From Promethearchaeota archaeon Loki_b32 (GTDB lineage Archaea; Asgardarchaeota; Lokiarchaeia; Sigyniarchaeales; SOKP01), in assembly GCA_005223125.1 (NCBI GenBank), contig NJBH01000028.1, forward strand, positions 1 to 53,413: a DNA stretch of 53,413 nt. The letters run 5' to 3'. Positions 2,232 to 21,114 of this stretch are shown piece by piece (within the stretch, counting starts at the first letter, position 1; each line of letters begins with the position of its first letter). The position numbers were made by a program, and so were the translations under genes. The notes below the pieces were generated by a model. The model ran no database searches and was not told the origin of the DNA. It was given only the letters and a program-made list of their open reading frames with translations.

Positions 2232-2300
2232 ATGGGAAAGGGAAAAATAATTGCCATAATTGGTGGTATATTAGGAGTAATAGGTGGAGCCACTAGTTAA
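2232..2300 (+). pseudogene. 22-aa mini-ORF MGKGKIIAIIGGILGVIGGATS, probably an internally deleted paralogue of the 1502..2026 membrane protein
   Basis: Manual translation. Upstream aaaaaaagtgtga leader resembles that of the neighbour, a T13 tract follows, the N-terminus resembles MTVGKKLSVISGII and the end resembles GGILGIVAS. Confidence 0.55.
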
Positions 2301-2311
2301 TTAAAAATTAA

Positions 2312-2324
2312 TTTTTTTTTTTTT
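2312..2324 (+). terminator. Oligo-T tract (T13), candidate archaeal terminator
   Basis: T run 12 nt after the stop of the mini-ORF, between convergent genes. Confidence 0.45.
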
Positions 2325-2349
2325 CTAATAATTAATTACTTTATATTCG

Positions 2350-3018
2350 TTAATTATTCCCCATTAAAAGTTTAATGTCTTCAAGAGTATTTATATTAAG
2401 AAAAGTAAGAAGATTTTGATCATACTGCTTAATTGAGTTTTCAACAGATAGGAAGTTAATTTTCCAATTATCACTAATAATATTAGTGAGTTTGTATTTA
2501 TGATTTTTCAAGTTTTCCTCAGCTTTTTTATATGCTTTTTTAATAGGATATATCGCAAATAAAGGCTCTAAGAATCCATTATTCCATTTTGGAATACAAC
2601 AATCATATCCTTTTGATTGTTTTATCAAAAATTCAATTACATCGAGATTAATAAGTGGTAAATCACAAGAAAGTGTAAGGGATTTTTCATAATCCATGTC
2701 TTTTAATTCTTTATATGCTGAGTATAATCCTTTCATAGGGGTATGAAAATTTGAATCTGATGAAGGAGAATTATCGTCAATTATGAATCCTGTAATCTGT
2801 CTAATATCAATTTTATTAATGTAAGACTGAACTTGTTCTATGGAATGTGCGACTAAGAAAATATCATAATCGGTTTGAGTTAATGTCTCAAGCTGATAGG
2901 AAATTAAAGATTTCCCGTGAAATTCAAAAAGCCCCTTATCACTTCCAAAACGGGTACTTTTCCCTCCAATTAATATAGCAATTGCTAGATATTTAGAATT
3001 GTTTTTTATTGATAACAC
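2350..3018 (-). CDS. mobA: Molybdenum cofactor guanylyltransferase
   Basis: ILIGGKSTRFGSDKG, LSCDLP, LEPLFAIY and FLNINT motifs. Confidence 0.88.
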   Translation of the reverse strand: MLSIKNNSKYLAIAILIGGKSTRFGSDKGLFEFHGKSLISYQLETLTQTDYDIFLVAHSIEQVQSYINKIDIRQITGFIIDDNSPSSDSNFHTPMKGLYSAYKELKDMDYEKSLTLSCDLPLINLDVIEFLIKQSKGYDCCIPKWNNGFLEPLFAIYPIKKAYKKAEENLKNHKYKLTNIISDNWKINFLSVENSIKQYDQNLLTFLNINTLEDIKLLMGNN

Positions 3019-3126
3019 TTCTGTGTTAGAAATATTTAATATTCTATTAGACTAATAATTAAAAATTATATATGATTTAAATTAATTGAAGATAATAAAA
3101 TTGCTGCTCTCAATCGTACCAATATC

Positions 3127-4650: not shown

Positions 4651-4657
4651 TTAACTC

Positions 4658-6055
4658 TTATTCCACCCCATCCCAGCAATAAGTACACAGCTTTTCTTTT
4701 GGTAATCCAATAGCTTTAACCAGATCCTCAAGTTTCTGGTATTGTAAAGTTGTTAGACGTAACCTTTTACGAATAACATCGACCATGGCTTTAAAATTGT
4801 CCGATTCTGGATCTGTATACTCAGCAGGATCGTCAATATCTCTTCCGATTAATTCTTTTATTGCCCATCGCCCTGCTAAATCTAACTCAGAACGAAACCT
4901 TGAGAAATTTAAGAATTTGCAGCTATAAACAAGTGGAGGACATGCTGGTCTCATATGAACCTCCTTAGCACCATAATCGAATAATCTTTGGATAGTTTTT
5001 CTAAGTTGTGTCCCTCTCACAATTGAATCTTCACAGAAAAGTAAACGCTTATCTTCAATAAGTTCTTTAATTGGAATGAGTTTCATCTTCGCAACTTCAT
5101 CCCTAATAGATTGTACTTGAGGCATGAAGCTCCGAGGCCATGTTGGAGTATATTTTACAAATGGTCGAGAGAAGGGAATTTTTGCTTCGTTTGCATAACC
5201 CAGCCCATGCCCTGTACCTGAATCTGGGATACCTGCAACTAGATCAATTTCAATATCATCATTCTTTGATAAATAAGAACCACATTTATAACGAACAACT
5301 TCTACATTTATATCTTCGTAATTAGATGCAGGATATCCATAATATACCCATAGAAAAGCACAAATCTGCATTTGGTCACGAGGTGCTGCTTTTTGTTCAA
5401 CACCCTTCTGGCTTAATAAAATTATTTCACCTGGTCCAAGATATTTTATTATTTCATATCCTAAGTTTGGAAATGCACATGTTTCCATTGTAACAGCATA
5501 CGAGCCAACTTTTTTTCCTAATATGAGGGGTGTCCTACCGAATTTATCCCTAGCGGCATAGATTCCTTCACTTGTTAATAAAAGAATTGTACATGAACCT
5601 TTTACTAAATTTTGAACTTTCTGAATGCCCTCTTTAAAAGTAGATCCTTGGCTAATTATAGTTGCCACCATTTCTGTTGGATTAATCTCTCCACCATGCA
5701 TTTCTGAGAAATGTGTTCCATTTTTTAACGCTTCTTTTGCCAGATATTCTAAATTATTAATTTTTCCAACTGTAGAGATAGCAAATACACCTAAACCTGA
5801 GCTAATTATTAAAGGTTGATCATCATAATCACTGATCACACCGATACCTTTATTTCCATGCATTTTTTTGATATCTTTCTCAAATTTCGACCTAAATTGA
5901 GTTGTTGTAATATCTTTGATGAATCTTTGAAAACCACCTGAATTTTTAACAGCCAATCCTCCTCTTCTCGTTCCTAAATGAGAATGATAATCAGTTCCAT
6001 AAAAAAGATCTTCCAAACAATCCGAATCTGAAAAAACTCCAAAAAGACCTCCCAT
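4658..6055 (-). CDS. purF: Second amidophosphoribosyltransferase-like protein lacking the N-terminal catalytic Cys
   Basis: Starts MGGLFG; HSHLGTRRGG, IPDSG, CEDSIVRGTQ, RPACPP and CTYCW motifs. Confidence 0.88.
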   Translation of the reverse strand: MGGLFGVFSDSDCLEDLFYGTDYHSHLGTRRGGLAVKNSGGFQRFIKDITTTQFRSKFEKDIKKMHGNKGIGVISDYDDQPLIISSGLGVFAISTVGKINNLEYLAKEALKNGTHFSEMHGGEINPTEMVATIISQGSTFKEGIQKVQNLVKGSCTILLLTSEGIYAARDKFGRTPLILGKKVGSYAVTMETCAFPNLGYEIIKYLGPGEIILLSQKGVEQKAAPRDQMQICAFLWVYYGYPASNYEDINVEVVRYKCGSYLSKNDDIEIDLVAGIPDSGTGHGLGYANEAKIPFSRPFVKYTPTWPRSFMPQVQSIRDEVAKMKLIPIKELIEDKRLLFCEDSIVRGTQLRKTIQRLFDYGAKEVHMRPACPPLVYSCKFLNFSRFRSELDLAGRWAIKELIGRDIDDPAEYTDPESDNFKAMVDVIRKRLRLTTLQYQKLEDLVKAIGLPKEKLCTYCWDGVE

Positions 6056-6166
6056 TATTTATACACAATATATTTGAACGAAAAAATATTATTAAATGAG
6101 ATTATTAATCCAATATGATTTGAAAAAGCTAAGATACTCCTAAATCATTTAGATAAAAATGTATAA

Positions 6167-6304
6167 TTAATTTATAATTTTGGCTCCCGGGATATCCTCT
6201 CTTTCAAATCTTTTCATAATTATTGCGTTGTTCGAGCAGGTTACAGCACATAATCCCTACCCAATACATTTGTCAAGATTAACTTGTGCAATATCATTAA
6301 CTGT
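6167..6304 (-). pseudogene. C-terminal remnant of a 4Fe-4S ferredoxin-domain gene with an in-frame TAG
   Basis: Manual translation TVNDIAQVNLDKCIG*GLCAVTCSNNAIIMKRFEREDIPGAKIIN. CxxCxxCxxxC has its second Cys replaced by TAG (6257-6259). No start codon; overlaps the hypF stop. Confidence 0.75.
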
Positions 6305-8690
6305 GCTGGAATAATCCTCCAATTAATTGCCCTGTACTAATTCCAGCATCACCAGGAGGAACTAGATTGTGTTCTAAAAACTCAAATCCCTCTAATTTTA
6401 TATCTTTTTTTATAGTTTTTGCGAATAAGAAATTGTAGGCAACCCCTCCAGTCAATCCAATTTTATCTATTCCTTTTAGTTTAGCTATCTCTTTAGCTAC
6501 TTTTGAAAAAGCTAAAGCCAATTCTACATGAAATTTGGCAGCAATATCAATGGGTCTATTTTTTTTATCCTTAAGTAAATTTATGATATCAAGAGTTAAT
6601 TTTGATGTATCTATTATAGCTTTACCTTTTACTTCATCTATATTTATTTCAAGCTTAATATTTGCAGGATTGCCTCTTGATGCTAAACCTTCAAGCTTCA
6701 TAGCAGGTTCTCCTCTATATGTTTTAACATAAGAAGCCCCTAATATATATGAAACAACATCAAATATTCTGCCTGTTGAGCTTGTTAATGGAATATTTTC
6801 AGAAGGAAATCGATTATTTGCTTTTTCAAATTGTGAAATTAGCGTTTTTAATTCGGTTTCTTTAAATTCTAAATCATTTTTTATTTTTGATTTCTCAAAA
6901 ATCTTTGATGCTTCTTCTGTTCCAAGTTCTCTCAATAAAATTGAGCTTAACATACGAGCAGGATATTTAGTACATCGATCTCCTCCCACCATTGGTTGAT
7001 ATTTCAAATGTCCAATCCTTTCATAATTATCATAAGATGCTATTAGAATCTCTCCTCCCCAAATATTTTCATCATCACCATATCCAATTCCATCAGTACT
7101 TATACCAATGATTTTTTCATCAAGTTTCACCTTATTTTCAGCCATTAATCCCAAAACATGAGCATAGTGGTGTTGGATAGGGTAGAGCGGAACATTAAAC
7201 TGCTTAGATAATTCTTTTCCAAATTTGGTAGTAATGAATTCGGGGTGCGCGTCGCAAGCTATAAATTTAATTTCAGAATCCCTTATTTGAAGTAAACCTT
7301 TTAAATGAAAGAGAGAATTTTTTAAGAATTCATAAGTTTCAAGATGAGTTATATGTCCGATATGTTGAGTAGGAAATATTCTATTATATTTTAAAATACT
7401 ACCCGTTGCAGCCAACTCAGGACCCGTTGCAAAAGCACTTGGAATATCAACTTCAAAAGGTAATGAAAGATATTCCGGAACAAAACCTCGAGAACGTCTA
7501 ATTAATTTTTCAATACCATCATGTATTCTTAAAACACTATCATCTGCTCTTTGATAAATTGGTCTATTATGGATGAGAAAAATATCTGCTAGATCTTGAA
7601 GTTGATTAAATATATCCTCGTTTTCAATTGCCATAGGAATATAAGATTTATTCCCACTTGTATAGATTAAAGGTTTCTCTCCAATGTATTCAAATAATAA
7701 ATAATGAATTCCCGAATATGGAAGCATTATCCCAACATTATTCAATCCTGGAGCCACTTGTGTACTAATTATTGAATTATTACTCAACTTTTTTCTTTCT
7801 AAAAGCACTATTGGTCTACGGAATGAATTTAAAAATTCTCTTTCAGAACTTGAGATTTCAAAATCGTTTTCGATTAAATCTAAGTTTGGAACCATTAAAG
7901 CGAATGGCTTAAACTTTCTTTCACCTTTTCTTTTACGAAGTTTGATTATTGTGCCGTCATTCACTAAACAAACTAAATGTGTACCTCCAATACCCTTGAT
8001 AGCGATAACTTCTCCTCTGTTTATTCTGGTAGCAACCTCTTGTAATATTAGATCAATTGAACCACTCTCAATAATTTCTTTTTGTTTGTTATACAATTTG
8101 TAATGTGGTCCACAAACAGAACATGCAAATGTCTGAGCATGAAATCTTCTATTATTGAAATCTGAATATTCTCCAATACAAGACTCAGGTTCTGCGTGTT
8201 GGCAAAAAGGAAATTTAACCATTGTGCTACGTTCTCTATCATAAGGTAATTCAGTTACTGTTGTATACCTTGGGCCACACACTGCACACGCAATAAAAGG
8301 ATATTTATAATACTTTTTTTTATAAGGATTATGCATATCTTTTAAGCATTCATCACAAATTGCAATATCTGGTGGGAGTGTTAGACTAATACCACGACCC
8401 TGTTCACTTTGCCTAATCTCAAGATTTTGAAATTTTTCGTGATAATCTAAATACTCAACTTCAATTTCTTCAATGAAAGAAATCTTAGGTTTTTTAATCT
8501 TAATATCTTCTAAAAAATTTTTTATATTTTGAGAATTCCCTTGTAAGATTAATCTTACGCCTGCATTTCCTCTATTTAATATATAACCATTTAGATTTAA
8601 GGAACGAGCTAAATTATATAAGAAGGGTCTAAAACCTACTCCTTGAACTATTCCTATAATTCTAATTTCTACTGTTTTATAATCTCTCAA
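6297..8690 (-). CDS. hypF: Carbamoyltransferase for [NiFe]-hydrogenase maturation
   Basis: Acylphosphatase motif GIVQGVGFRPF, Zn-finger CxxC motifs, KGIGG, QHHYAH, DGIGYG and PPGDAGISTGQ. Confidence 0.97.
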   Translation of the reverse strand: MRDYKTVEIRIIGIVQGVGFRPFLYNLARSLNLNGYILNRGNAGVRLILQGNSQNIKNFLEDIKIKKPKISFIEEIEVEYLDYHEKFQNLEIRQSEQGRGISLTLPPDIAICDECLKDMHNPYKKKYYKYPFIACAVCGPRYTTVTELPYDRERSTMVKFPFCQHAEPESCIGEYSDFNNRRFHAQTFACSVCGPHYKLYNKQKEIIESGSIDLILQEVATRINRGEVIAIKGIGGTHLVCLVNDGTIIKLRKRKGERKFKPFALMVPNLDLIENDFEISSSEREFLNSFRRPIVLLERKKLSNNSIISTQVAPGLNNVGIMLPYSGIHYLLFEYIGEKPLIYTSGNKSYIPMAIENEDIFNQLQDLADIFLIHNRPIYQRADDSVLRIHDGIEKLIRRSRGFVPEYLSLPFEVDIPSAFATGPELAATGSILKYNRIFPTQHIGHITHLETYEFLKNSLFHLKGLLQIRDSEIKFIACDAHPEFITTKFGKELSKQFNVPLYPIQHHYAHVLGLMAENKVKLDEKIIGISTDGIGYGDDENIWGGEILIASYDNYERIGHLKYQPMVGGDRCTKYPARMLSSILLRELGTEEASKIFEKSKIKNDLEFKETELKTLISQFEKANNRFPSENIPLTSSTGRIFDVVSYILGASYVKTYRGEPAMKLEGLASRGNPANIKLEINIDEVKGKAIIDTSKLTLDIINLLKDKKNRPIDIAAKFHVELALAFSKVAKEIAKLKGIDKIGLTGGVAYNFLFAKTIKKDIKLEGFEFLEHNLVPPGDAGISTGQLIGGLFQHS

Positions 8691-8839
8691 ATAGTTCCTT
8701 CAAGTTTTCATATTTAATTTGAGTTCTAATTTATTAAATAATCGCTATAAAATAAGATTAATATTTTATTATGAAAAGTATTATTAAATTAAGCTTTTGT
8801 TTTAGAATTAAACATTAACTTAAGTAGTACAGTGTTAAA

Positions 8840-9712
8840 ATGACTTTAAAAGAAAATATATGTGATATTCCATATAATAAAGCATTCTTCAAGACTAGTC
8901 ATAATTCATATATACATTCTATAAGGGAGCAATTAAATAAGGGAGTTAGAGGTCTTGAATATGATATACATGATGATAAAATACAAGAATTAGAAGATTT
9001 TGAAGTTTATCATTTACAAAACCATATTGATTCACTTCTTAATAAGGATGGTAACCCAAATAACCTTCTATTGACTAATTGGCTTAAATTATTAGATGAT
9101 TGGTCGGCTGAACAAAATAAAGACCATACACCCATCACACTCTTTATTGAGCTTAAAGATTCTATTATTGACTCAAATAATGAACCTGAAGAACTCTATG
9201 GGATCAAGAAACTTAATAAAATTATAGTAGATGCATTTCATTCGAAAACACTCTTCACTTTTAAAGATTTCAGAGAAAATAATTTTGATTGGCCAACAGT
9301 TAGGGAATTAAAAGGACGTATTATAATTGTTCTTGTAAGTTATTGGGGCGGATACTGGGCTGCCAGTGAGGGGGGTTTTAACTCTAGGCTCAAATATTTG
9401 AATAATTGCTTAGAAGGAATGGATGATGTCTGTTTTGTTTCTTGGGTACAAGAAGATCAAGGAGATAAAGCATCCTATCTTAAAGATAAAAGCCATTTTT
9501 GGAAATGTAGTCTTGAATTTAGCACTAAAAACTTTTCTCAAAACTCTGAATCCCAAAGAGTAACGCGGGCTGATTTTGATAAAATAGTATGGGGGATGCA
9601 CATAAAAACATATTATAAGAAAAATTATGAAAAAGGATATCGTTGTAATTTCCCTGCTACAGATGTGTGGGGGACAGAAAAATACGATTCATGTTTTCCT
9701 TGGTCAATTTAA
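8840..9712 (+). CDS. Phosphatidylinositol-specific phospholipase C-like phosphodiesterase (PLC TIM barrel)
   Basis: TSHNSY, QLNKGVRGLEYDIH, VYH, HTPITLFIELKD and WPTVRELKGRII match the PI-PLC X-domain pattern. Confidence 0.75.
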   Translation: MTLKENICDIPYNKAFFKTSHNSYIHSIREQLNKGVRGLEYDIHDDKIQELEDFEVYHLQNHIDSLLNKDGNPNNLLLTNWLKLLDDWSAEQNKDHTPITLFIELKDSIIDSNNEPEELYGIKKLNKIIVDAFHSKTLFTFKDFRENNFDWPTVRELKGRIIIVLVSYWGGYWAASEGGFNSRLKYLNNCLEGMDDVCFVSWVQEDQGDKASYLKDKSHFWKCSLEFSTKNFSQNSESQRVTRADFDKIVWGMHIKTYYKKNYEKGYRCNFPATDVWGTEKYDSCFPWSI

Positions 9713-10812
9713 CTATTGTCATTACTGTGATATTTATAATAAATATTACACGTTCCTTCCATCGAAACCATACATGGACCAATTGGATTAATAGGAGTAC
9801 ATTCCTTTCTGAATAATTTACATTCATATGGATAAAGTTTCCCAACCATTATTAGGTGACATGAACATCCAGGAGGGATGTCTTGAGATTTTTCGATTTT
9901 TATATCAAATTTCTTATCGGCATCAAATTCTTGATGTTCTTCTTTAATTACTAATCCCCCATCGTACACTCTCCCAATGCCTCTCCATGGTGATGAAACA
10001 GACTCAAAAACGTCTTCTATTATTTTTTGAGCGATTATATTTCCTTCAGGCTTTACAACTCTAGAATATTCATTTATTGTATCAAACCTTTTGTCTCTTA
10101 ATTGCCTCAACAGCATTAAAATTGAGAGTAATACATCATTAGGTTCAAAACCAGATATCACATTAGGTATTTTGTATCCTTGAGCAAATATTTCATATGG
10201 TTTCAATCCAATTATTGTTGATACATGTCCGGGAGATATAAAACCATCAATTTTTAACTGAGATTGACTCATCAATAGCTCTAACGCAGCTGGTATTAAC
10301 TTATGAGCACAAATAACTGAGAAGTTAGAAGGAGGTCCAGATTGTAATTCATATCCGATCAACGGCACAGTGGTTTCAAACCCTATAGCAAAAAATATTA
10401 CTTCTTTATTTGGATTTTCTTTAGCAATTTTAATAGCATCATTAGGTCCATAGACAATACGAATATCAGCCCCTTTGGCTTTCAACTCAGCTAAAGAAAT
10501 ACTAGTAGCTGGAACTCGGATCATGTCCCCAAAAGTTGTTATTATCGTGTCATCTCGTCTTCCTAGCTCAACTGCTTTATCAATATCTGCTGCAGGACAT
10601 ATACATACTGGACATCCCGGCCCCGATAATATTTCGATTTCTTTAGGTAATAAAGTTCTTAATCCATATTTAGAAATTGTATGTTCATGAGTCCCACAAA
10701 CATGCATAAATTTAATTGGTTTACCTATTTCATTAATAGTTTTATGTATTGCCTTAATAATTTTATCTGTAAATTCTTTACTCCTTAAAATCTTTATACC
10801 GGGGATGTCCAT
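9709..10812 (-). CDS. hypD: Hydrogenase maturation protein HypD
   Basis: MHVCGTHEH, SGPGCPVC, GFETT, PGHVS and PIGPCMVSMEGTC. Confidence 0.97.
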   Translation of the reverse strand: MDIPGIKILRSKEFTDKIIKAIHKTINEIGKPIKFMHVCGTHEHTISKYGLRTLLPKEIEILSGPGCPVCICPAADIDKAVELGRRDDTIITTFGDMIRVPATSISLAELKAKGADIRIVYGPNDAIKIAKENPNKEVIFFAIGFETTVPLIGYELQSGPPSNFSVICAHKLIPAALELLMSQSQLKIDGFISPGHVSTIIGLKPYEIFAQGYKIPNVISGFEPNDVLLSILMLLRQLRDKRFDTINEYSRVVKPEGNIIAQKIIEDVFESVSSPWRGIGRVYDGGLVIKEEHQEFDADKKFDIKIEKSQDIPPGCSCHLIMVGKLYPYECKLFRKECTPINPIGPCMVSMEGTCNIYYKYHSNDNS

Positions 10813-10950: not shown

Positions 10951-11250
10951 ATGAGTAATAATCAAAGTTTGACAGAAGATATTCGTAAAAAGATTATTGA
11001 AATCCTTAAGAAACATAGAGCAAAAAAAATATCCATTTTTGGATCTTATATTAGAGGGGATGCTACACCAGAAAGTGATTTGGATGTAATAGTTGAATTT
11101 AATGAACCAAAAGGACTTATTAAATTTGTTGGCATAGAAAATGAATTATCAGAGATATTAGGAATAAAAGTAGATCTATTAACTGAGAGTGCGATAAGCT
11201 TATATCTTATTAACGATATTAAAAAAGAAGCTATTGTGATATATGGATGA
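10951..11250 (+). CDS. Minimal nucleotidyltransferase (MNT antitoxin)
   Basis: FGSYIRGDATPESDLDVIV (GS-x10-DxD) and KVDL; 99 aa. Confidence 0.92.
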   Translation: MSNNQSLTEDIRKKIIEILKKHRAKKISIFGSYIRGDATPESDLDVIVEFNEPKGLIKFVGIENELSEILGIKVDLLTESAISLYLINDIKKEAIVIYG

Positions 11251-11402
11251 AAAAAGATAACCTCTTTTTAAGTCATATACTTGATTCCTGTATACATATC
11301 ATAGAATTTACAAAGGATATAGCTAAGAAAGACATATCTATTCTTAAAATAGATATTGAGAAAATATTAAATAAAAAAGATAAGGATGGATACGATGATT
11401 AA
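11247..11402 (+). pseudogene. HEPN/DUF86 toxin with a large in-frame internal deletion (51 aa)
   Basis: ATGA overlap with the MNT stop. MKKDNLFLSHILDSCIHIIEFTKDI joins directly to AKKDISILKIDIEKIL, the typical DUF86 N- and C-terminal helices, with no R-x4-H motif. Confidence 0.75.
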
Positions 11403-12451
11403 CAAATACGAGGTATGGGTTCCCCTAAAGGCATATCTATAAATCGAGTTCCTCCTACAATTGTTTTTAAGAACACTCTTTGAGGATTTTGTACTTTTAC
11501 CTCCCCAATTATTTCAGCATCTTTTCCAATCTCAGTTGACTTGATTTTTTTTAATATTTTTACAGAATGCTCTGGATCAACTGCCAAGAGAGCTCTCCCT
11601 TCACTTGCTATATTGTACGGATCTAATCCTAGCATATCACATATAGCTGTGACTGGTTTTTTAAGAGGGACTTTAACTTCATCAATCCAAATACTTATGT
11701 TAGATTTTATTGCCCAATTATTTAAGGCAGCTGCAATTCCTCCACGTGTTGGATCCTTCATCGCATGAATATAATTATTACTAATATCTAACTTCAATGC
11801 ATCATAAATTTCTAGTAAAAGTGAAATATCTGATATTAAATCAGTAGATATATTTAATCCTTCTCGTGAAGCCATTAATGCGGTTCCATGATCTCCAATA
11901 CTTCCAGTTAGGATAATAAGATCTCCAGTTCTAATGTTGTTGTCCAAAATCTTTATGTCTTTATCTTTAATTCCAATACCTGTTGTTGCAATAATCATTT
12001 CATTTAAAGTTCCTCTCGGCATTACTTTAGTATCCCCTGCAATTATTGCAATATTCGCTTTATGTGCCATGGTATTCATTGAGATAACAATTTTCTCCAG
12101 TTTTTTGAATTCAAAACCCTCTTCTATGATCATCATAGATGTTAAAGCTAATGGTTCTGCACCCATCATTATTAGATCATTTACTGTCCCACATATGCTT
12201 AAAGTTCCTAAATCTCCTCCAGGAAAGAACAGAGGATAAACGGTATGTCCATCTCCAGTTACAACAATTTCTTTATCATAATCTTCCAAAGGAATTGTGG
12301 CCCCATCGTCTAATTCCTCAACACCAATACCATTATTGACATTTTTAAAAGGAATATTTTTCGTGATAAATTTAATTAATTCTTCTTGTAAAACCCCACC
12401 TGCTCCATGTGCTAGGCGTATAACTTCTGAACTCTCTTTTTTTCCGCTCAT
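11399..12451 (-). CDS. hypE: Hydrogenase maturation protein HypE
   Basis: LAHGAGG, FFPGGDLG, GTVNDL, AGDTKV, MKDPTRGG and C-terminal PRIC. Confidence 0.97.
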   Translation of the reverse strand: MSGKKESSEVIRLAHGAGGVLQEELIKFITKNIPFKNVNNGIGVEELDDGATIPLEDYDKEIVVTGDGHTVYPLFFPGGDLGTLSICGTVNDLIMMGAEPLALTSMMIIEEGFEFKKLEKIVISMNTMAHKANIAIIAGDTKVMPRGTLNEMIIATTGIGIKDKDIKILDNNIRTGDLIILTGSIGDHGTALMASREGLNISTDLISDISLLLEIYDALKLDISNNYIHAMKDPTRGGIAAALNNWAIKSNISIWIDEVKVPLKKPVTAICDMLGLDPYNIASEGRALLAVDPEHSVKILKKIKSTEIGKDAEIIGEVKVQNPQRVFLKTIVGGTRFIDMPLGEPIPRIC

Positions 12452-12606: not shown

Positions 12607-12899
12607 TTACATATTTATGATAGCATCATTTTCAAAAATAAGATCGACGATTTCTTCTGTAGTAACTAATTTAATTTTATCAGAGATGAAATTGGTTAAT
12701 CCTCTTAAATCTATATGCTCTTTACATGCAGCTACGCTTTTCATTTGATTAATTGCCTGTGAAACTGCTTTATTTGATTTATTCGCGAAATATACAGCAT
12801 TTTGGAGAAAAAGAATTGTTACATCATCTTTGTCAGTATGTTCCATAGCAATTCTGCTTGGTATGGTCCATTGAAAAAAAGGATTCCAAGGCGTCCCAT
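12607..12899 (-). pseudogene. DsrE/DsrH(TusB)-like sulfur relay protein, frameshifted near the 5' end
   Basis: ATG at 12899 gives MGRLGILFFNGPYQAE (DsrE-fold start). The body RIAMEHTDKDDVTILFLQNAVY...ACKEHIDLRGL is in a different frame; the track reports only 12607..12846. Confidence 0.7.
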
Positions 12900-12922
12900 A
12901 CTTTCCTTATCATCTCCAGAAT

Positions 12923-13957
12923 TTATTCTTGTTTCCACATAAATAGAAGATAAGCTACTATCCAACATCCCATCACTATAAAAGCGCCTGTGATGATACT
13001 GTGTAATGAAAGTTGTGGGATACCGCTTAAGATATTCGTTACATTACATCCCATTGCTGTTACGGCACCAAATCCCATCAGGCCTCCACCAATAAATTGT
13101 TTGAATAATGTGAATCCATCTTTAGGAACTCTGAACTTAAATTCTCCAGCGATATAAGCACTAACAAAAGATCCAATGATTATACCAAAAATTATAAAAC
13201 CAGCCCACATAACAGAATCTGTAGTTGTAATCCACAAGTGAATATCCATCCAACCACCTGGGATACAAATAACTCCATTACTGGCAACATATCCAGCGGT
13301 TAAAATTAAGCCAATAAGGATCCCAGTAACCCACCAAGGATATCCCTTTTTGAATGTCGCTTCTTTAAAATTTCCAAATTTTATCAAAGAATCATTTAGT
13401 TCTCTTTTTTTCTTAATTGCGGGCCATCCCCAGAAGAAGAACATCAGTACAATTCCTATTATACCCACTATGAGCATAAAAACTGGTGTTAATGTGGTGT
13501 CAAATTCCCCGAAAAGTGTAAGTTTTGTTCCAACTGTTAAGTCTTGTAAGTTGTTCTTAGCATTTACTATGGGTCCCATAGCTGTCATTATTGCGCCTAT
13601 TGTTAATCCAACAGCAGCTATAAATGATCCCATCATTCCTTCTCCTACTCTATATGTCGTTCCACTCGCGCATCCTGCTGCAAGTACCATTCCAATTCCA
13701 AAAATTAAGCCACCAACAATTGCAGCTATTGGTTTTAAGGGGTTTGGATTTAAATCGATTACTCCACCAAAAGCAAATATGGCAAGACCAACCATTAGAA
13801 CGGCAAGTGAAATTGTTACTGCTTTTGCTAGTCTATATTCTTTTAAGAAAATAATATCTCTGAATGCAGAATTCATGCAGAATCTTCCACGTTGTAAAAT
13901 AAAACCAAAAATGGCTCCAATTATGAGCCCTGCTACCAATGAGTACCAAAATTCCAT
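12923..13957 (-). CDS. yeeE: YeeE/YedE family sulfur-compound (thiosulfate/selenium) transporter
   Basis: About 9 TM helices with the three conserved Cys motifs QRGRFCM, LAAGCASG and AMGCNV. Confidence 0.92.
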   Translation of the reverse strand: MEFWYSLVAGLIIGAIFGFILQRGRFCMNSAFRDIIFLKEYRLAKAVTISLAVLMVGLAIFAFGGVIDLNPNPLKPIAAIVGGLIFGIGMVLAAGCASGTTYRVGEGMMGSFIAAVGLTIGAIMTAMGPIVNAKNNLQDLTVGTKLTLFGEFDTTLTPVFMLIVGIIGIVLMFFFWGWPAIKKKRELNDSLIKFGNFKEATFKKGYPWWVTGILIGLILTAGYVASNGVICIPGGWMDIHLWITTTDSVMWAGFIIFGIIIGSFVSAYIAGEFKFRVPKDGFTLFKQFIGGGLMGFGAVTAMGCNVTNILSGIPQLSLHSIITGAFIVMGCWIVAYLLFMWKQE

Positions 13958-13969
13958 TTTATTTTCACC

Positions 13970-14203
13970 TTATTTTATTTGGACGAGAATCTTCCAAGAA
14001 GAATCTCCGGTTTTTTCTACAGATAGCACTTCATGCCCCATAGATTTCATTGTCTCTGGAATTCTTTCAGCTGAAAGAGGATAATCAATCAAAATCTCAA
14101 GTACATCTCCAGAATTCATTTTTTTAACAATTCTCTTACTTTTTACATCTGGATAAGGACAAACATCGCCCGTGCAATCCAGTGTATCTGTAATATCTAC
14201 CAT
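13970..14203 (-). CDS. tusA: TusA/YeeD/YedF family sulfur carrier
   Basis: LDCTGDVCPYP (CPxP) and GDVLEILID. Start moved to ATG 14203 (77 aa), the usual family length. Confidence 0.92.
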   Translation of the reverse strand: MVDITDTLDCTGDVCPYPDVKSKRIVKKMNSGDVLEILIDYPLSAERIPETMKSMGHEVLSVEKTGDSSWKILVQIK

Positions 14204-14341
14204 TTCAATCCAACTTTTTTTATTGTTTTTTATATATGACTTCTGAATAATCATTCAATAAAAGAACGATAATACTCATTGGATTTTAGAATATTTAAAA
14301 TTATTATATTTAAAAGTAAAATGAATCAGAAGTTTTTAATA

Positions 14342-14357
14342 AAGTTATGAATAACTT
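14342..14357. promoter_or_regulatory. Palindrome AAGTTAT-GA-ATAACTT, candidate operator in a divergent promoter
   Basis: Perfect 7-2-7 inverted repeat between the tusA and vhuG starts; the AT-rich context lowers its significance. Confidence 0.3.
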
Positions 14358-14431
14358 ATTTCAACTAATTTTTTTTATTACAAATTAGCTAATTTAAATA
14401 AATAAAAAAAAACAACAAAAATTGATATAAA

Positions 14432-15745
14432 ATGGCAGTAAAAGTAGCTTTTATGCAACTTTCCGATTGTTGGGGCTGTCATCAATCCTTATTAAATAAT
14501 CACTTAGGATTGTTGCCAGTTCTTCCAGCACTCGAAATAGTTTACTGGCCAGCAGTAGTAGACTTTAAACATGATTCATTGAAAGCAAGAGAAAATGGTT
14601 CAGTATTAGTCGGATTCATTGAAGGATCAATTAGAACTAACGAAGATTATGAAAACGTAAAATTAATGAGAGACAAATGTGCTTTGATTATTGCTTTTGG
14701 TAGTTGTTCATGCTATGGAAATGTACATGGCCTTGCTAACCAATGGAATAAAGACGACTTAGTAAGAAGAAAATTCTCTGAAGTAGAAAGTATAGCGGAT
14801 GGTAGTGGTGGTGAACCAACAGAACATACACCGGGTTTTAGAGATAAAATCGTCCCGGTAGATGAAGTAGTTAACGTAGATGCGTATATTGCAGGATGTC
14901 CTCCAAAACCAGAAGGTATTGTCTCTGCGATAGCATTTCTGTTAGGACAAAAACCTTTTCCTATGAATGATCTAGCATTTTGTAATGATTGCAGTATTAA
15001 GGATAATTGTCTATTAGATACAGGAAAACTATGTTTTGGTCCAATTACTAGTATTGGTTGTAGTTTAAAATGTACTAGTAATGGAAACCCATGTGTTGGT
15101 TGCTTTGGTCCAGCAAAGACAGTGGATTCACGAGCAGAGAAATTAATCGGAATGACAAAAAGTCTTGCATCAATTAGTTCAGGGGATAAAAAGAATTTGT
15201 ATGAATTCTTAACACTATTCCTAAATATTCCATTGATGGCGGGATTTGATTTAGCTGGAGATATATTAAAGCAAGTTAAGAAATATGGAAGCCCTAGTAC
15301 CCCTTTAGCAAATCTACCTCCTACAACAGAGGAAATTGCAGGTGGTTTAATGGCTTTCTTAAGAGATAATCCAGATTTCACTGAAATTTCAAATGTCTGT
15401 GATACATGTCCTAGAATTATAGGAAGCAAGTCTACGATGACAAGAGTTAAAAGAGATTATGAAGGACTTCCTAATATGGAAGATTGCCTTATTGAACAAG
15501 GATATATCTGTATGGGACCTGTCACTAAAGCTGGCTGTGGTGGTTTATGTATAACGGTTAATACTCCATGTAGTGGCTGTTATGGTCAAACTAAATGGGG
15601 TGTTAATCAAGCAGAGAGATTTGCAGATACAGTGTTAAAACAGTTTAATGTGAGCTTATCGAAGGATGATCTACTTGCTCAAGTTAAAGATCCTATTGGT
15701 ACTTTTGAAAAATTCACATTAGCATCAAGAAAAGGAGGCGTATAA
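14432..15745 (+). CDS. vhuG: Group 3c (Mvh/Vhu-type) hydrogenase small subunit with a duplicated C-terminal Fe-S domain
   Basis: SDCWGC, EGSI, FGSCSCYG and IAGCPP, then two copies of CxxC..CL..CxGP.T..GC...C....PCxGCxG. Confidence 0.9.
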   Translation: MAVKVAFMQLSDCWGCHQSLLNNHLGLLPVLPALEIVYWPAVVDFKHDSLKARENGSVLVGFIEGSIRTNEDYENVKLMRDKCALIIAFGSCSCYGNVHGLANQWNKDDLVRRKFSEVESIADGSGGEPTEHTPGFRDKIVPVDEVVNVDAYIAGCPPKPEGIVSAIAFLLGQKPFPMNDLAFCNDCSIKDNCLLDTGKLCFGPITSIGCSLKCTSNGNPCVGCFGPAKTVDSRAEKLIGMTKSLASISSGDKKNLYEFLTLFLNIPLMAGFDLAGDILKQVKKYGSPSTPLANLPPTTEEIAGGLMAFLRDNPDFTEISNVCDTCPRIIGSKSTMTRVKRDYEGLPNMEDCLIEQGYICMGPVTKAGCGGLCITVNTPCSGCYGQTKWGVNQAERFADTVLKQFNVSLSKDDLLAQVKDPIGTFEKFTLASRKGGV

Positions 15746-15749
15746 AAAA

Positions 15750-17054
15750 ATGGTAAAAGTAATAGAAGTAGAGCCTGTTACTCGATTAGAGGGGCATGGA
15801 GGTTTAAGAGTAGTTTTAGATGATGATGGTAAGGTACAAGATGTTCAGTTTAATATCACTTCAACGAGATTTTTTGAAAAATTTCTTGAAGGTCGTTACT
15901 GCGAGCATATTCCAAGAATAACACCTAGAATTTGTGGTATCTGTCCAATTCCTCATCATTTAACACCAACTAAAGCAGTAGAAGATGCTTGGGGTGTCAA
16001 AATTCCTCCTGCTGCATATAAATTGCGTCAATTGTTGCAAAACGCAAAACAATATTCATCACATACATTACATTTCTATGCACTTGCAGCTCCTGATTTC
16101 TTATTAGGACCTTTTGCAGATCCTGCGCTAAGGAACGTAGTACATGTTATTAATAAAATGCCAGATGTAGGTAAAATGGCTTTAAAAATGATGGATTTTG
16201 GTCAAAAATTATGTGCTGCAATTGGAGGTAAATCTGTGCATCCTATCAGTGCTATAGTCGGGGGAATGAAAAAGCCTTTAGATGAAGATGTCCGAGATAA
16301 ATTCTTGAAGCAAATTGAGGATCAAGTTGAATGGGCTAAAAAAACTGTAGATATAGGATTAAAAGTTGTCGAAGATTATTGGGATGTTGTAGCTAATGTA
16401 GGTGTTGTCCCTACTTATTACGTTGGAATGACAAAGAATGGTATCCATGATATTTATGATGGAGATATTCGTATTGTTTCTCCTGACGGAGAAAAATTTG
16501 ATTATCCACCTCAAAAATATTTAGATGCTTTAGGTGAACATATACCGGAACATTCTTATGCAACTCACATGTATTATAAACCAGCAGGGTACCCTGAAGG
16601 TATTTATCGAGCGAATACATTAGCAATGACCAACTGTGCTGATAAAATGGCGACTCCCTTAGCTGATGAAGCATTGCAAGCAATGAGAGCAAAAATTGGA
16701 AACATATCTCATCATACATTCGCGTATCACTGGGCTCGATTAATTGAATTAGTTGAGTCAATTGAAGTTATTGCAACACTTCTTCAAGATGATGATGTGG
16801 TTAATACTGATTGTAAAACATTAGATGTGCAACCAAGAGAAGGAGATGGAGTCGGTATCACTGAAGCTCCTAGAGGATTACTCTTATATCATATATGGTC
16901 TGATGCTGAGGGTATTTGTAAGAAAGCAAACCTCTTAGTTGCGACTAACCATAATATCGCAGGGATTGAGAAGACACTAATGCATGTTGCTAAACAAGTA
17001 TTTGAAGACAAAGCGTTAGAAGGACTTAAATTACCAGATCCATGGATAAAATAA
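15750..17054 (+). CDS. vhuA: Group 3c hydrogenase large subunit, N-terminal part (no C-terminal Ni motif)
   Basis: EPVTRLEGHG, RICGICPIPHH (L1), EAPRGLLLYH and ANLLVATNHN; ends without DPCxxC. Confidence 0.93.
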   Translation: MVKVIEVEPVTRLEGHGGLRVVLDDDGKVQDVQFNITSTRFFEKFLEGRYCEHIPRITPRICGICPIPHHLTPTKAVEDAWGVKIPPAAYKLRQLLQNAKQYSSHTLHFYALAAPDFLLGPFADPALRNVVHVINKMPDVGKMALKMMDFGQKLCAAIGGKSVHPISAIVGGMKKPLDEDVRDKFLKQIEDQVEWAKKTVDIGLKVVEDYWDVVANVGVVPTYYVGMTKNGIHDIYDGDIRIVSPDGEKFDYPPQKYLDALGEHIPEHSYATHMYYKPAGYPEGIYRANTLAMTNCADKMATPLADEALQAMRAKIGNISHHTFAYHWARLIELVESIEVIATLLQDDDVVNTDCKTLDVQPREGDGVGITEAPRGLLLYHIWSDAEGICKKANLLVATNHNIAGIEKTLMHVAKQVFEDKALEGLKLPDPWIK

Positions 17055-17086
17055 ACTAAATCAAAATTTAGAGTGTGAACAAAAAA

Positions 17087-17236
17087 ATGAGTGATATACC
17101 AGAAGGAGTAGTAAACATCTTAGAAATGATAGTCCGTTGTTTTGACTGTTGACTATCGTGTGCCGCTCACATCACAGTAGTTGATGAGGATGGTAAAGAA
17201 ATTTACTCTCGTGAGATGAACGTTGGTTTAGGATGA
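17087..17236 (+). CDS. vhuU: Selenocysteine-containing small hydrogenase subunit (49 aa; Sec TGA at 17150-17152)
   Basis: Manual translation MSDIPEGVVNILEMIVRCFDC-U-LSCAAHITVVDEDGKEIYSREMNVGLG. Supplies the L2 motif missing from vhuA; the TGA sits exactly at the Ni-ligand position; GTGA leader upstream. Confidence 0.93.
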
Positions 17237-17295
17237 AATATCCAATAAAAATTATAGATTGGATATGACTGCCCTTGCCTGGGTTAAAAACCAAC
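17222..17295 (+). promoter_or_regulatory. Eukaryote-like SECIS element candidate
   Basis: ATGA (17233-36), stem ATATCCAAT (17238-46), loop starting AAAAA, ATTGGATAT (17258-66), GA (17267-68). Outer complementary arms GTTGGTTT (17222-29) and AAACCAAC (17288-95). Confidence 0.8.
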
Positions 17296-17345
17296 AAATA
17301 TGAACAAATATAGAATAAAAAACGTAAAAAAAAAGTGAAAAAAAA

Positions 17346-17870
17346 ATGACATTACCATTAGGTATAGATTTTGAATTTAGGAAACTTATAATGGACGTCC
17401 ATGTGTCATCTGATAAAATCAAATACTGTTATCAATGTAGCAGATGTACAGATAATTGTCCTGTCGCTGCAGTAGCTAACCCATTTTACGAAAACATTTT
17501 TGATCCTAGATTAATTGTCTTAGGTACTCTATTAGGGTATAAAGATGTTGTAATGGCTCTTGCCGGCAAAAAATCGGCGATTGTACCATGGGGTTGTACT
17601 GTATGTGATACATGTGATACTGTCTGTCCTCAAGCTATTGAGGTCACTGAAATTATTACTTTAGCGAAAAACATAACTACTGGAGCTGGACTAGCACCAG
17701 ACAGTGTTGTAGCTCAAGCAAAATCTGTTTTCGAGAGTGGAAAAGCTATTCCATCTCAACCCGCGATCGAGAGAAGACGTGAGCAATTAGGCTTACCAAG
17801 TGTTGTTGCACCAGATGTTAATGAAGTTCAAACTTTATTAAAAGCAATAGGTGCTGATAAAAAATTATAA
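17346..17870 (+). CDS. hdrC: Heterodisulfide reductase subunit C-like (2x[4Fe-4S])
   Basis: CYQCSRCTDNCP and WGCTVCDTCDTVCPQ; RRREQLGLP tail. Confidence 0.9.
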   Translation: MTLPLGIDFEFRKLIMDVHVSSDKIKYCYQCSRCTDNCPVAAVANPFYENIFDPRLIVLGTLLGYKDVVMALAGKKSAIVPWGCTVCDTCDTVCPQAIEVTEIITLAKNITTGAGLAPDSVVAQAKSVFESGKAIPSQPAIERRREQLGLPSVVAPDVNEVQTLLKAIGADKKL

Positions 17871-18751
17871 TGGAGGATAAGAAAATGACAGAATATAAAA
17901 TGTTTGAAGGATGTGTTATTGGAAACAGAATTCCGTTTATTGAGGCAGCCTCCAGAAAGGTTTTAGACAAAATTGGGGTCCAAACATCACAAGCTCCATT
18001 TGCTTGTTGTCCAGATCCTACAGGAGTAAAAAGCTTTGACAACACAGCGTGGTTGGCCTTAGGTGCTCGAAACTTATGTTTAGCAGAAGCTGAAGGCAAG
18101 GATATTATCTCTCTTTGTAATGGTTGTACTAATACACTTCGTGGAGTACAGCACCAATTAAAACATGATTCCAATAAAAAAGAAGCCATTAATAAAGAAT
18201 TGGCTAAAATTGGCAAGGAATATAAAGGTTCCATTGATGTAAAGCATTTTGTTGACGTATTATTGTCAAATTTAGATGCGATAAAGGGTGCAATTACGAA
18301 GCAAATGGGTGATTTAAAAGTTGCTTGTCATCCTGGTTGCCATTACATGCGACCTGTTGAATGGATGGATTCTGATGATCCCTTACGTCCAAAAAATTTG
18401 AAAGAAATTGTTGCTGTTTCAGGAGCTAATGTAGTTGATTATGAAGAATTAGCTCTTTGCTGTGGGAATGCTGTTGCAGGTCCGTTTCCAGAACATGGAG
18501 ACGCAATCTTAAAGCAAAAATATGACTCGATTAAAAAAGCTGGCGCAAATTGTATCGTTGTAAACTGTCCTGCATGTTTTCAAAGATTAGACGGAGAACA
18601 ACGAAATCTTTCAAAGAAATTTGAAACTGAATATAATATTCCTATATTATATATAACGGAATTGTTAGCTTTAGCTATGGGTGTAAGTTCTGAGGAGATT
18701 GGTTTAAAAAACCATCGAACTAGACGAAATACAGCTATAGAAAATCTTTAA
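17870..18751 (+). CDS. hdrB: Heterodisulfide reductase subunit B-like (two CCG domains)
   Basis: EGC..ACCPDP..CNGC and HPGCH..LCCG..NCPAC. An alternative start at ATG 17885 follows GGAGG. Confidence 0.93.
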   Translation: MEDKKMTEYKMFEGCVIGNRIPFIEAASRKVLDKIGVQTSQAPFACCPDPTGVKSFDNTAWLALGARNLCLAEAEGKDIISLCNGCTNTLRGVQHQLKHDSNKKEAINKELAKIGKEYKGSIDVKHFVDVLLSNLDAIKGAITKQMGDLKVACHPGCHYMRPVEWMDSDDPLRPKNLKEIVAVSGANVVDYEELALCCGNAVAGPFPEHGDAILKQKYDSIKKAGANCIVVNCPACFQRLDGEQRNLSKKFETEYNIPILYITELLALAMGVSSEEIGLKNHRTRRNTAIENL

Positions 18752-18769
18752 GCTATAATCTATAAATTA

Positions 18770-18781
18770 TTTTTTTTTTTT
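18770..18781 (+). terminator. Oligo-T tract (T12) ending the vhu-hdr operon
   Basis: T run 19 nt after the hdrB stop. Confidence 0.55.
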
Positions 18782-18943
18782 AATTTTCTTTAACATTCTT
18801 ATTATGATTGTAAGATTTAAATAAGAAAGAATTATTTAATAAATTGGAATTTTATAATTTTGTATAATTAAACAAATCCACTGTATTTATCTTAGGGATT
18901 ATTAAAAATAAAAGAATAAAAATAATGGAGAGTTAATATAATA

Positions 18944-19738
18944 ATGTTTAATTTAAAGCGTGATGCTCCTTGGTTTTTTCAGCATCTCGAAAATTACTAC
19001 CACCTTTTTCTCAACGTGAGATTTACTAATGGAGTGAATGTTCGAAGAAATATAAAATTCTCAGTAGAATTAAATCTTCAAGGATTTGAAGGATTATTAT
19101 TTTATATGTACAAACCTGATATTAAGAAAGTAAGTTTCAACTTGTATAAACATTCAGTTGATCAAACACATGAAATAAGGGATCTTAATTTAGTTTTAAA
19201 CCAGGGAACAATGAATCCATTAGATTTTGTAATAATTCCATTTGGCTATTTTAAAGATGAACATAAATTCACTTTGGATATACGGAGTGATGATGTAGAA
19301 TCCAGCTTCGATTTATATTCATGGTCTCCATCCAATCTTTATAAAAATATTAAATCTGTAATCAAAATCGCAAATCAATATTCAGAATCAATTCCAATAG
19401 ATGATTATAGGGGCTATTACTTCCAATTTATAAGTGCATTTAAGGGGAACGAAACTGGAAGGCTTTTCGATTTAATAAATCTTCTCGTAGATTTTGATAA
19501 AAGTGTTGATGAGATTGATAATTCTCCTATGTTTGAGGCAATGGATTCAGAGATAAAAAATCTAGTGTCAAAAAGTAACGAGTTTTTATTCGAATTATGC
19601 CACACTTCCGTTCCTTTGGATGTAAAAAATATAGTGAGAGAGTTAGAAAGATTAAAATTCAATATTGATAGTCTATCAAAAGAAGAGATTTTTAATTGGC
19701 TAGACGACCTAATAGCCTTCTACTCGGGTAAATCCTAA
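18944..19738 (+). CDS. Hypothetical protein
   Basis: 264-aa ORF with a GGAG leader; no motif recognised. Confidence 0.65.
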   Translation: MFNLKRDAPWFFQHLENYYHLFLNVRFTNGVNVRRNIKFSVELNLQGFEGLLFYMYKPDIKKVSFNLYKHSVDQTHEIRDLNLVLNQGTMNPLDFVIIPFGYFKDEHKFTLDIRSDDVESSFDLYSWSPSNLYKNIKSVIKIANQYSESIPIDDYRGYYFQFISAFKGNETGRLFDLINLLVDFDKSVDEIDNSPMFEAMDSEIKNLVSKSNEFLFELCHTSVPLDVKNIVRELERLKFNIDSLSKEEIFNWLDDLIAFYSGKS

Positions 19739-19807: not shown

Positions 19808-20050
19808 ATGTGTTTAGCAATACCCGGAAAAATTTTAGAAATTGATGGTAATTCAGCATTAATAGATTTTGACGGGATTAAACAAAAAGTAATTATAGCT
19901 TTAATTCAGAATCCTGAGATAGGAAAATATGTTATTATTCATGCTGGCTATGCAATAGAAATGATGAATGAAAAAGATGCATTAGAAGCAATAGAACAAT
20001 GGAATGAACTTGCTGAAGAACAAAACTTAGACTTATCTGATATACTATAA
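19808..20050 (+). CDS. hypC: Hydrogenase maturation chaperone HypC
   Basis: MCLAIPG start and YVIIHAGYA. Confidence 0.97.
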   Translation: MCLAIPGKILEIDGNSALIDFDGIKQKVIIALIQNPEIGKYVIIHAGYAIEMMNEKDALEAIEQWNELAEEQNLDLSDIL

Positions 20051-20170: not shown

Positions 20171-20974
20171 CTATAGATCAAATAATTCTTGCTTCAATTT
20201 CTTTAATTTTTCATAAAGAGATTTTATAGATAAAATTCCATTGGAATTTGAATTAAAATCAACAGGGGATTTACCTTCTAAATCAGCTTTCCCAATATCT
20301 GGGTCAAAGGGAATTGAATGAAAAAGGGGAACTTCCCAATTTTTTATTTTTTGATTAATAATCTCTTTTTGTGGGTCATCTGTTATTTTATTTGCAATTA
20401 AATAAATATTGATGACTCCTAATTTTTTTGATAACTCAATTATTTTCTTGCAGAGATCTAGAGATTTTTGAGAAGGTTCTGTGATTACCAGCATTAAATC
20501 AATTCCTTTTGCAGTGCCACGTCCTAAATGCTCAATACCAGCTTCAAAATCAACAATTACGACTTCATCTCTTTTCACAAACAAATTGTATAATAAAGTT
20601 CTTATTAAAGCATTTTCAGGACATAAACATCCCGTAGCAGGCTCTTCAATACCACCTAAAACCAATAATTGTAATCCATCTGGGCCTGATACCTTATATT
20701 TATCAGGAATATCAGACACTTCTGGGTTTATATTATAGACTCCAGGACCCGCACTCTTTAAAAAAGTTCTTTCCTCTATCATTGACTTCATTTCTTTAAT
20801 CGGAACAATTTTTTCTTTAGTATTCTCATCAATACCTAAAGTATAGCTAAGATTCATTGCTGAATCGTTATCAATTGCAAGAACCTTAAATCCATCTTTT
20901 GCAAACAACCTTGCTAAAATACCTGCAACTAAAGTTTTTCCAACGCCACCCTTTCCACTGACTGCGATTTTCAT
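20171..20974 (-). CDS. cooC: CooC/AcsF-type nickel insertion ATPase
   Basis: MKIAVSGKGGVGKT, GCLCPEN (CxC) and DFEAGIEHLGRGT. Start moved to ATG 20974. Confidence 0.92.
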   Translation of the reverse strand: MKIAVSGKGGVGKTLVAGILARLFAKDGFKVLAIDNDSAMNLSYTLGIDENTKEKIVPIKEMKSMIEERTFLKSAGPGVYNINPEVSDIPDKYKVSGPDGLQLLVLGGIEEPATGCLCPENALIRTLLYNLFVKRDEVVIVDFEAGIEHLGRGTAKGIDLMLVITEPSQKSLDLCKKIIELSKKLGVINIYLIANKITDDPQKEIINQKIKNWEVPLFHSIPFDPDIGKADLEGKSPVDFNSNSNGILSIKSLYEKLKKLKQELFDL

Positions 20975-21114
20975 GATTAATTTATAAGTAATTCGAAATG
21001 AATTAAATTTTTTATTTATAAGTTCAAATAATTTGAAATAAAATACCATAATAGAATAATATTAAACAAACTGAATCTAATAATACATAAGATTTACAAA
21101 GAAAATAATATAGA

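Follow-up and report, generated by a model that had tools for sequence, protein, structure and literature searches.

A contig of 53,413 nucleotides from Promethearchaeota archaeon Loki_b32 (NJBH01000028.1 of assembly GCA_005223125.1; contig C41 in our numbering, and referred to below in its full length as the window) carries an operon in which a [NiFeSe] hydrogenase is encoded together with the HdrC and HdrB subunits of a heterodisulfide reductase (Hdr), in the order vhuG-vhuA-vhuU-hdrC-hdrB and with neither hdrA nor mvhD. This operon is real and strongly conserved among relatives. Its small subunit, VhuG, is elongated by a duplicated eight-cysteine module and is predicted to bind five iron-sulfur clusters, and facing away from vhuG lies a sulfur cassette consisting of tusA, a yeeE/tsuA-type transporter gene and the remains of dsr genes. 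We tentatively propose, at somewhat less than an even chance, that the five operon products form one soluble complex carrying electrons from H2 to HdrB, where they would reduce a sulfur-sulfur substrate perhaps borne by TusA or DsrE. The genome amounts to 4.13 Mb and is 95.5% complete, and its closest relatives are metagenome-assembled genomes labelled Promethearchaeota or Lokiarchaeota.

All five genes of the operon are on the plus strand and run co-directionally into an oligo-T run 3' of hdrB (about 18771–18782), read from the sequence as a likely archaeal terminator, as the initial annotation had described. The first gene, vhuG (14432–15745), encodes a hydrogenase small subunit that is long, at 437 residues, and is recognised by PF01058 and by the NCBIfam VhuG model. 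It is followed by vhuA (15750–17054), which matches NCBIfam VhuA (E=5.8e-143, model positions 4–417 of 418) and PF00374 and encodes a [NiFeSe] hydrogenase large subunit without the C-terminal nickel-binding motif. The C-terminal nickel ligands are supplied by vhuU (17087–17236), a 49-codon selenoprotein gene apparent when TGA is translated as selenocysteine (Sec). The ferredoxin-like subunit with two [4Fe-4S] motifs encoded by hdrC (17346–17870; TIGR03290 and the Fer4 families) has eight invariant cysteines and aligns to HdrC of 8RVV and 5ODC, and the catalytic subunit encoded by hdrB (17870–18751), with two CCG domains (PF02754 twice; TIGR03288, E=4e-78), aligns over its full length to methanogen HdrB (E=6e-63). 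The cluster ligands are retained in both HdrB and HdrC.

The Sec codon of vhuU is codon 22 (17150–17152), within the motif RCFDCULSCAAH. A Loki-type selenocysteine insertion sequence (SECIS) was located at 17233–17268 on the plus strand from its predicted fold (z=-2.55): the AUGA and the vhuU stop codon overlap, a stem of 9 bp and an A-rich loop of 11 nt come next, and the stem shows compensatory changes across the loci of relatives. Rfam and ARAGORN gave no matches in the window, and no Rfam family reached threshold over the SECIS. Both vhuU of Lokiarchaeota and the Loki-type SECIS had already been described by Mariotti et al. 2016 (PMC4989117).

Conservation was assessed in a scan of one genome per species, which yielded 68 loci with VhuG at 68–94% identity, and in 151 genomes sampled evenly from the class, 40 of them of high quality. 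In all of the approximately 55 relatives' loci where the contig reaches far enough, vhuG is followed by vhuA, vhuU, hdrC and hdrB, and because the block recurs in every one of them the arrangement is not due to chance. The core operon occurs in two gene orders, G-A-U-C-B and G-C-B-A-U. The latter is that of a second family (f2, with two single-contig genomes among its members), where hdrC and hdrB are placed between the hydrogenase subunit genes (vhuG-hdrC-hdrB-vhuA-vhuU). In a clade at only 42% identity vhuG, hdrC and hdrB abut with zero gap. Of the 151 class genomes 132 encode a long VhuG, as do 38 of the 40 of high quality. The VhuU motif DCULSCAAH (D-C-U-x2-C-x2-H), Sec included, is found in 58 of 58 loci of relatives, both those with a cassette and those lacking one. 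None of the 68 loci has a gene for HdrA or MvhD within 10 kb of vhuG. The initial annotation had stated that no hdrA or mvhD/vhuD occurs in the window, and this was borne out: tblastn (E<=1e-3) detected no homologue of HdrA or MvhD in the 53 kb, and none of the 12 matches to PF02662 (MvhD) in the genome lies on this contig. HdrC and HdrB themselves exist as two types (loci L009–L076), with at least 84% and with 55–77% identity to the proteins of the window, and the two subunits are inherited together. The type changes at least seven times on the VhuA tree, which suggests repeated recombinational replacement of the hdrCB module.

The length of VhuG is explained by an insert. The protein aligns to MvhG (5ODC_E) in two blocks, residues 3–190 and 320–432, and approximately residues 183–319 (about 130 residues) form a duplicated eight-cysteine, two-cluster module together with a helical linker. 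The repeat within the protein is detected with E=4e-12, all 16 cysteines of the modules are invariant in 25 sequences, and alignment with relatives of ordinary length identifies the second module as the canonical one. A model of VhuG calculated with AlphaFold2 on a 79-row alignment has a predicted local distance difference test score (pLDDT) of 87; it superseded an earlier run on a shallow 25-row alignment, which was unusable at a pLDDT of 46.7. The model superimposes on MvhG (5ODI_E) with a Z score of 32.4 and a root mean square deviation of 2.3 Å over 286 of the 297 residues of MvhG, and VhuG is therefore a complete MvhG with an insert. Judged from its cysteine pattern, VhuG is predicted to bind five clusters, the three canonical ones and two from the duplicated module. 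A co-fold of VhuG with HdrC scored 0.26 against a mark of 0.32 and was counted neither for nor against binding.

Further long forms of VhuG make up about a dozen clusters at the 50%-identity level, and many Lokiarchaeia possess a second paralogue. Long paralogues without an adjoining hydrogenase large subunit were seen at L086:8001–11758, at L085:6389–7759 and in L095; in one locus the orphan is followed by a 577-residue amidohydrolase and an HdrC-like ferredoxin. The contigs of the other distant representatives are too short for informative context. In two relatives (L049:8629–9978 and L053:5378–6727; also G026) VhuG has an in-frame TAA at codon 24 with about 10 extra codons, between a conserved H and LGLLP, and a third (L072:10001–11374) has TGA at codon 15. 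Recoding, a short intervening sequence or a misassembly could account for these in-frame stops.

Elsewhere in the genome the two subunits missing from the operon are plentiful. The 12 MvhD domains, two of which contain an in-frame TGA (VhuD selenoproteins), are accompanied by many HdrA genes, so that independence from HdrA is not shown by the locus. It is a serious possibility, though short of probable, that VhuA, VhuG, VhuU and HdrCB are joined by HdrA and MvhD/VhuD from these other sites in a canonical bifurcating or confurcating complex like methanogen MvhADG-HdrABC. Methanogens assemble MvhADG-HdrABC from unlinked operons, and separation of the genes is therefore no proof of HdrA independence. 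VhuG keeps the full core of MvhG, which is the docking partner of MvhD in 5ODC. Only two NiFe large subunits are encoded in the genome for all of its HdrA-MvhD modules, and in a canonical complex the extra module of VhuG would perhaps be a docking or branch point by which one hydrogenase serves several of them. In two divergent lineages (L085 and L095) an orphan long VhuG adjoins a canonical hdrCBA-mvhD operon, and no column of the VhuG or VhuA alignments tracks the two HdrCB types, so that no co-adaptation signal was found. Cultured Lokiarchaeia are described as producers of H2: the relative MK-D1 has been assigned a confurcating, H2-producing enzyme under the label MvhADG-HdrABC (PMC7015854), and such H2 production could not be served by a non-bifurcating route from thiols to H2.

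A canonical complex, on the other hand, does not sit easily with the gene arrangement. Neither hdrA nor mvhD is ever part of the operon, be it in the 68 loci or in the alternative gene order, whereas hdrA, mvhD and a CCG-domain gene cluster tightly in the other Hdr modules of this genome: most MvhD domains adjoin an HdrA gene or are fused to one, with a CCG-domain gene nearby. HdrCB of the window is the exception to that pattern, with a hydrogenase as its neighbour, and this favours a self-contained hydrogenase-HdrCB module without proving it. In addition, the hdrCBA-mvhD set on contig C47, described below, already has its own HdrCB. Non-bifurcating wiring, in which VhuG would pass electrons directly to HdrC without HdrA or MvhD, is accordingly put forward only tentatively, at a little under an even chance. 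The second NiFe hydrogenase of the genome (L077, G000:C36:9001–26000) is encoded with an FrhB-like protein, an HdrA::MvhD fusion of 849 residues, an MvhG of normal length (276 residues) and MvhA; beside it on C36 is a cluster of an HdrD-like protein, HdrA (1037 residues), MvhD and FrhB.

On the minus strand, diverging from vhuG, are tusA, yeeE and a short dsrH-like open reading frame (ORF). Read from its first ATG, tusA spans 13970–14254 (PF01206, E=1.6e-20), and its product contains the motif DCTGDVCPYP with the active-site cysteine. TusA of relatives is encoded by ORFs of 77 residues; a start at 14203 fits this length and gives the 228-bp spacer to vhuG that the initial annotation had proposed. 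The next gene, yeeE (12923–13957), is apparently intact, matches PF04143 over its full length (E=5.7e-72) and encodes a sulfur (thiosulfate) transporter of the YeeE/TsuA type; it is the sole copy in the genome. In relatives the cassette normally has five genes, tusA-yeeE-dsrE-dsrF-dsrH, with complete DsrEFH subunits in 11 cassettes, and Cys77 is invariant in seven aligned DsrE. When the DNA of the window was aligned with that of two relatives (L014 and L025), a clean deletion of about 740 bp became apparent. It starts near codon 15 of dsrE and ends near codon 21 of dsrH, so that dsrF is lost entirely, together with most of dsrE and the 5' end of dsrH. Upstream of the junction dsrE retains its start codon plus about 14 others (12856–12899, minus strand). 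The dsrH/tusB-like remnant (12607–12846, minus strand) is 5'-truncated to 79 residues, compared with about 100 in relatives, and covers only positions 19–86 of the PF04077 profile; the loss is seen by tblastn as well as in the DNA alignment. The gene annotated initially as dsrE/H is thus present as a dsrH-like ORF but is a deletion remnant rather than an intact gene. The cassette is broken in this genome and its DsrEFH relay is crippled, so that a carrier-bound substrate would here need TusA alone or the paralogous tusA-dsrEFH sets on contigs C47, C37 and C49.

The relation of the cassette to the operon was examined across the class. In 20 of the 23 genomes where both are on one contig, YeeE is encoded within 1.8 kb of the primary vhuG, and in the remaining three it is farther away (coordinates compared by hand). 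The two occur in three arrangements: diverging in genera g1 and g4, running in the same direction in g3, and doing so again in family f2, where the core has its other order. Since the linkage survives both inversion and re-ordering of the core genes, a functional tie between the TusA/YeeE/DsrE relay and the hydrogenase-HdrCB operon is plausible.

The same survey offers a different explanation, namely that the cassette is a mere neighbour, a self-contained unit for thiosulfate uptake and sulfur assimilation whose synteny was inherited in a variable spot, while the substrate of HdrB would be a different, universal thiol/disulfide couple. YeeE is present in only 42 of the 151 genomes (7 of the 40 high-quality ones), compared with 132 for the long VhuG, and at least 31 of the 40 high-quality genomes have a long VhuG and no YeeE match; the cassette is facultative. 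In five cassette-less, Sec-using relatives, one of them a complete chromosome, neither the YeeE protein nor PF04143 found a match anywhere. The cassette is scattered over a poorly resolved VhuA tree with 13 changes, no better than shuffled labels, four loci have a second-type copy with no hydrogenase nearby, and the gap between hypE and vhuG, in which the cassette lies in the window, ranges between about 230 bp and 9 kb. Besides its decay here, several other loci retain a TusA match alone or a DsrH match alone. We nevertheless regard the mere-neighbour explanation as distinctly unlikely, given that the linkage outlasts inversion and core re-ordering across two families, that 20 of 23 same-contig cases fall within 1.8 kb, and that the genome contains a second association of TusA and DsrE with Hdr. 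The core operon is nearly universal in the class, and the cassette is close to vhuG in most genomes where the two share a contig but itself occurs in a minority of genomes.

This second, independent TusA/DsrE-Hdr association is found on contig C47 (L097, G000:C47:1-16000), where 11 genes on the minus strand (about 666–10312) begin with tusA-dsrE-dsrF-dsrH-dsrE2-hdrC-hdrB-hdrA-mvhD and end with genes for a 411-residue small-subunit-like protein, without a large subunit, and an 822-residue FrhB/GltD-like protein. Further dsrEFH and dsrE-tusA sets are located on C37 and C49, and DsrE-family genes occur in 150 of the 151 genomes of the class. Sulfur carriers of this sort are therefore a general partner of Hdr-type modules in these archaea, with the YeeE importer as an optional part. 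TusA-bound sulfur, which had been suggested initially as the substrate of the operon, is a candidate, and a functional tie to the relay is supported by the conserved linkage and the C47 cluster, although the cassette is facultative in the class and broken in this genome. The initial annotation had also pointed to hdrA, vhuD and coenzyme M synthesis genes elsewhere in the genome as informative. The former two are there in number, as described above, but searches of the 95.5%-complete genome for McrA (PF02249) and ComA (PF02679) found neither, while control genomes gave matches. Since neither was found, the heterodisulfide of coenzymes M and B (CoM-S-S-CoB) is unlikely to be the substrate.

A third explanation, also offered initially, is that TusA and YeeE are an importer and carrier of the YedE/YedF type that supply selenium for the Sec residue of VhuU. 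The best NCBIfam match of TusA is indeed YedF, at 57 bits against a cut-off of 79, YeeE also matches the YedE/FdhT models, at 133 bits against a cut-off of 350, and the unit is located inside a hydrogenase maturation island. These matches all fall under the curated cut-offs, however, and YeeE scores higher on TsuA, its best NCBIfam match (260 bits, itself under the cut-off). Sec is encoded in every VhuU locus examined irrespective of the cassette, the five Sec-using relatives mentioned above have no PF04143 match, and the normal form of the cassette includes DsrEFH, a sulfur relay. A role in selenium supply is for these reasons very improbable.

The mechanism that we propose would start with oxidation of H2 by the [NiFeSe] group 3c hydrogenase. 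Electrons would then pass along the iron-sulfur chain of the elongated small subunit, through the three canonical and two predicted clusters, to the two clusters of HdrC and on to the non-cubane clusters of HdrB, which would reduce a sulfur-sulfur bond. The substrate would be other than CoM-S-S-CoB, the best candidate being sulfane sulfur or a thiosulfonate on proteins of the TusA/DsrE family. In the full system it would be delivered by the neighbouring five-gene cassette, comprising TusA, the YeeE/TsuA importer and DsrE-DsrF-DsrH, and the product would be sulfide, either for assimilation or as an electron sink. The stronger proposition that the operon defines a new hydrogenase-Hdr class, an H2:protein-persulfide (TusA/DsrE) reductase that works without flavin and without bifurcation and whose five-cluster small subunit stands in for MvhD and HdrA as the connection to HdrCB, we consider to be on the unlikely side.

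In its individual parts the operon resembles the MvhADG/VhuADGU-HdrABC complexes of methanogens (5ODC, 8RVU and 9SW2). It has the subunits of group 3c: the large subunit is divided between VhuA and a separate Sec-containing VhuU, and the small subunit is of the MvhG fold and carries the ligands for three clusters. It also has an HdrB with two CCG domains and an HdrC with two [4Fe-4S] motifs, which align over their full lengths to the solved chains. It differs in that the hydrogenase operon includes hdrC and hdrB but neither hdrA nor mvhD, so that MvhD/VhuD is not encoded with the hydrogenase, and in the extra eight-cysteine module of the small subunit. The substrate would differ as well, because no Mcr or coenzyme M synthesis gene was found. 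The cassette is similar to YeeE/YeeD (TsuA/TsuB) in pairing a full-length PF04143 transporter with a TusA-like protein bearing a CPxP cysteine, whereas relatives add DsrE-DsrF-DsrH and the scores stay under the NCBIfam equivalog cut-offs. The three subunits of a DsrEFH/TusBCD complex, with the active-site cysteine of DsrE, are found in the cassettes of the 11 relatives but not in the window. The sulfur-oxidising sHdr system reportedly combines DsrE3/TusA sulfur transferases and LbpA with a duplicated HdrB/HdrC set and HdrA. Like it, the locus encodes TusA and DsrE-family carriers beside proteins of the HdrB/HdrC type, and the idea that the Hdr acts on protein-bound sulfur is common to both. 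Unlike it, the locus encodes a single HdrC, a single HdrB and no HdrA, and the partner is an H2-oxidising hydrogenase, so that the flow would be reductive.

To call the system undescribed, as was done initially, is too strong. A 2025 preprint on the cultured Asgard archaeon Nerearchaeum marumarumayae (bioRxiv 10.1101/2025.07.22.663070) proposes from the genome that a group 3c [NiFe] hydrogenase oxidises H2, that this is coupled through a cytosolic Hdr to reduction of persulfides bound to TusA and DsrE, and that thiosulfate enters via TsuA. This is the same metabolic idea, made independently for a cultured relative, and its direction of flow is opposite to that in the MK-D1 view (PMC7015854). 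Its passages on the terms searched contain no statement on missing HdrA or MvhD, on a five-cluster small subunit or on distribution or decay of the cassette. Another preprint (10.1101/2025.02.26.640444) notes NiFe clusters of Asgard archaea in which an FrhG-type subunit is accompanied by an 'HdrB-like' partner. A non-exhaustive search of the literature found no explicit description of an HdrA-less vhuGAU-hdrCB operon, of the five-cluster small subunit, or of the distribution and decay of the cassette.

Maturation genes that were not mentioned in the initial annotation flank the operon. On the minus strand upstream are hypF (6297–8690, with the HypF domain set in Pfam), hypD (9709–10812; TIGR00075, E=2e-144) and hypE (11399–12451; TIGR02124, E=8e-115), and downstream on the plus strand is hypC (19808–20050; TIGR00074, E=3.4e-26), so that the whole region is a hydrogenase island. 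The AIRS-family gene at 11399–12451 was also considered as SelD, which would have favoured selenium supply, and this was ruled out by its identification as HypE. Interleaved with hypF, hypD and hypE on the plus strand are a PI-PLC-like gene (8840–9712), which keeps the same position in many relatives, and a small nucleotidyltransferase gene (10951–11250). Between hdrB and hypC an ORF of 264 residues (18944–19738, plus strand) is conserved in most relatives; it has no Pfam or NCBIfam match and no usable ESM Atlas match, and may encode a hydrogenase-associated factor. A P-loop ATPase of the MinD/Mrp family (20171–21049, minus strand), conserved beside hypC, is a candidate for an Mrp/MinD-type HypB serving nickel insertion, as in Thermococcus.

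The role of Hdr-type enzymes in non-methanogens is unsettled, and the locus offers a concrete candidate substrate, carrier-bound sulfane sulfur, together with a concrete candidate architecture, a five-cluster small subunit feeding HdrCB. The usual label 'MvhADG-HdrABC' relies on subunits that are not encoded with the enzyme. The facultative and repeatedly decaying cassette provides natural comparison sets of genomes with a full cassette, a remnant or none. The operon is almost universal in an Asgard class whose exchanges of H2 and sulfur are central to syntrophy models of eukaryogenesis and, if it does define the new hydrogenase-Hdr class considered above, it would establish a direct link between H2 and sulfur metabolism in the closest archaeal relatives of eukaryotes.

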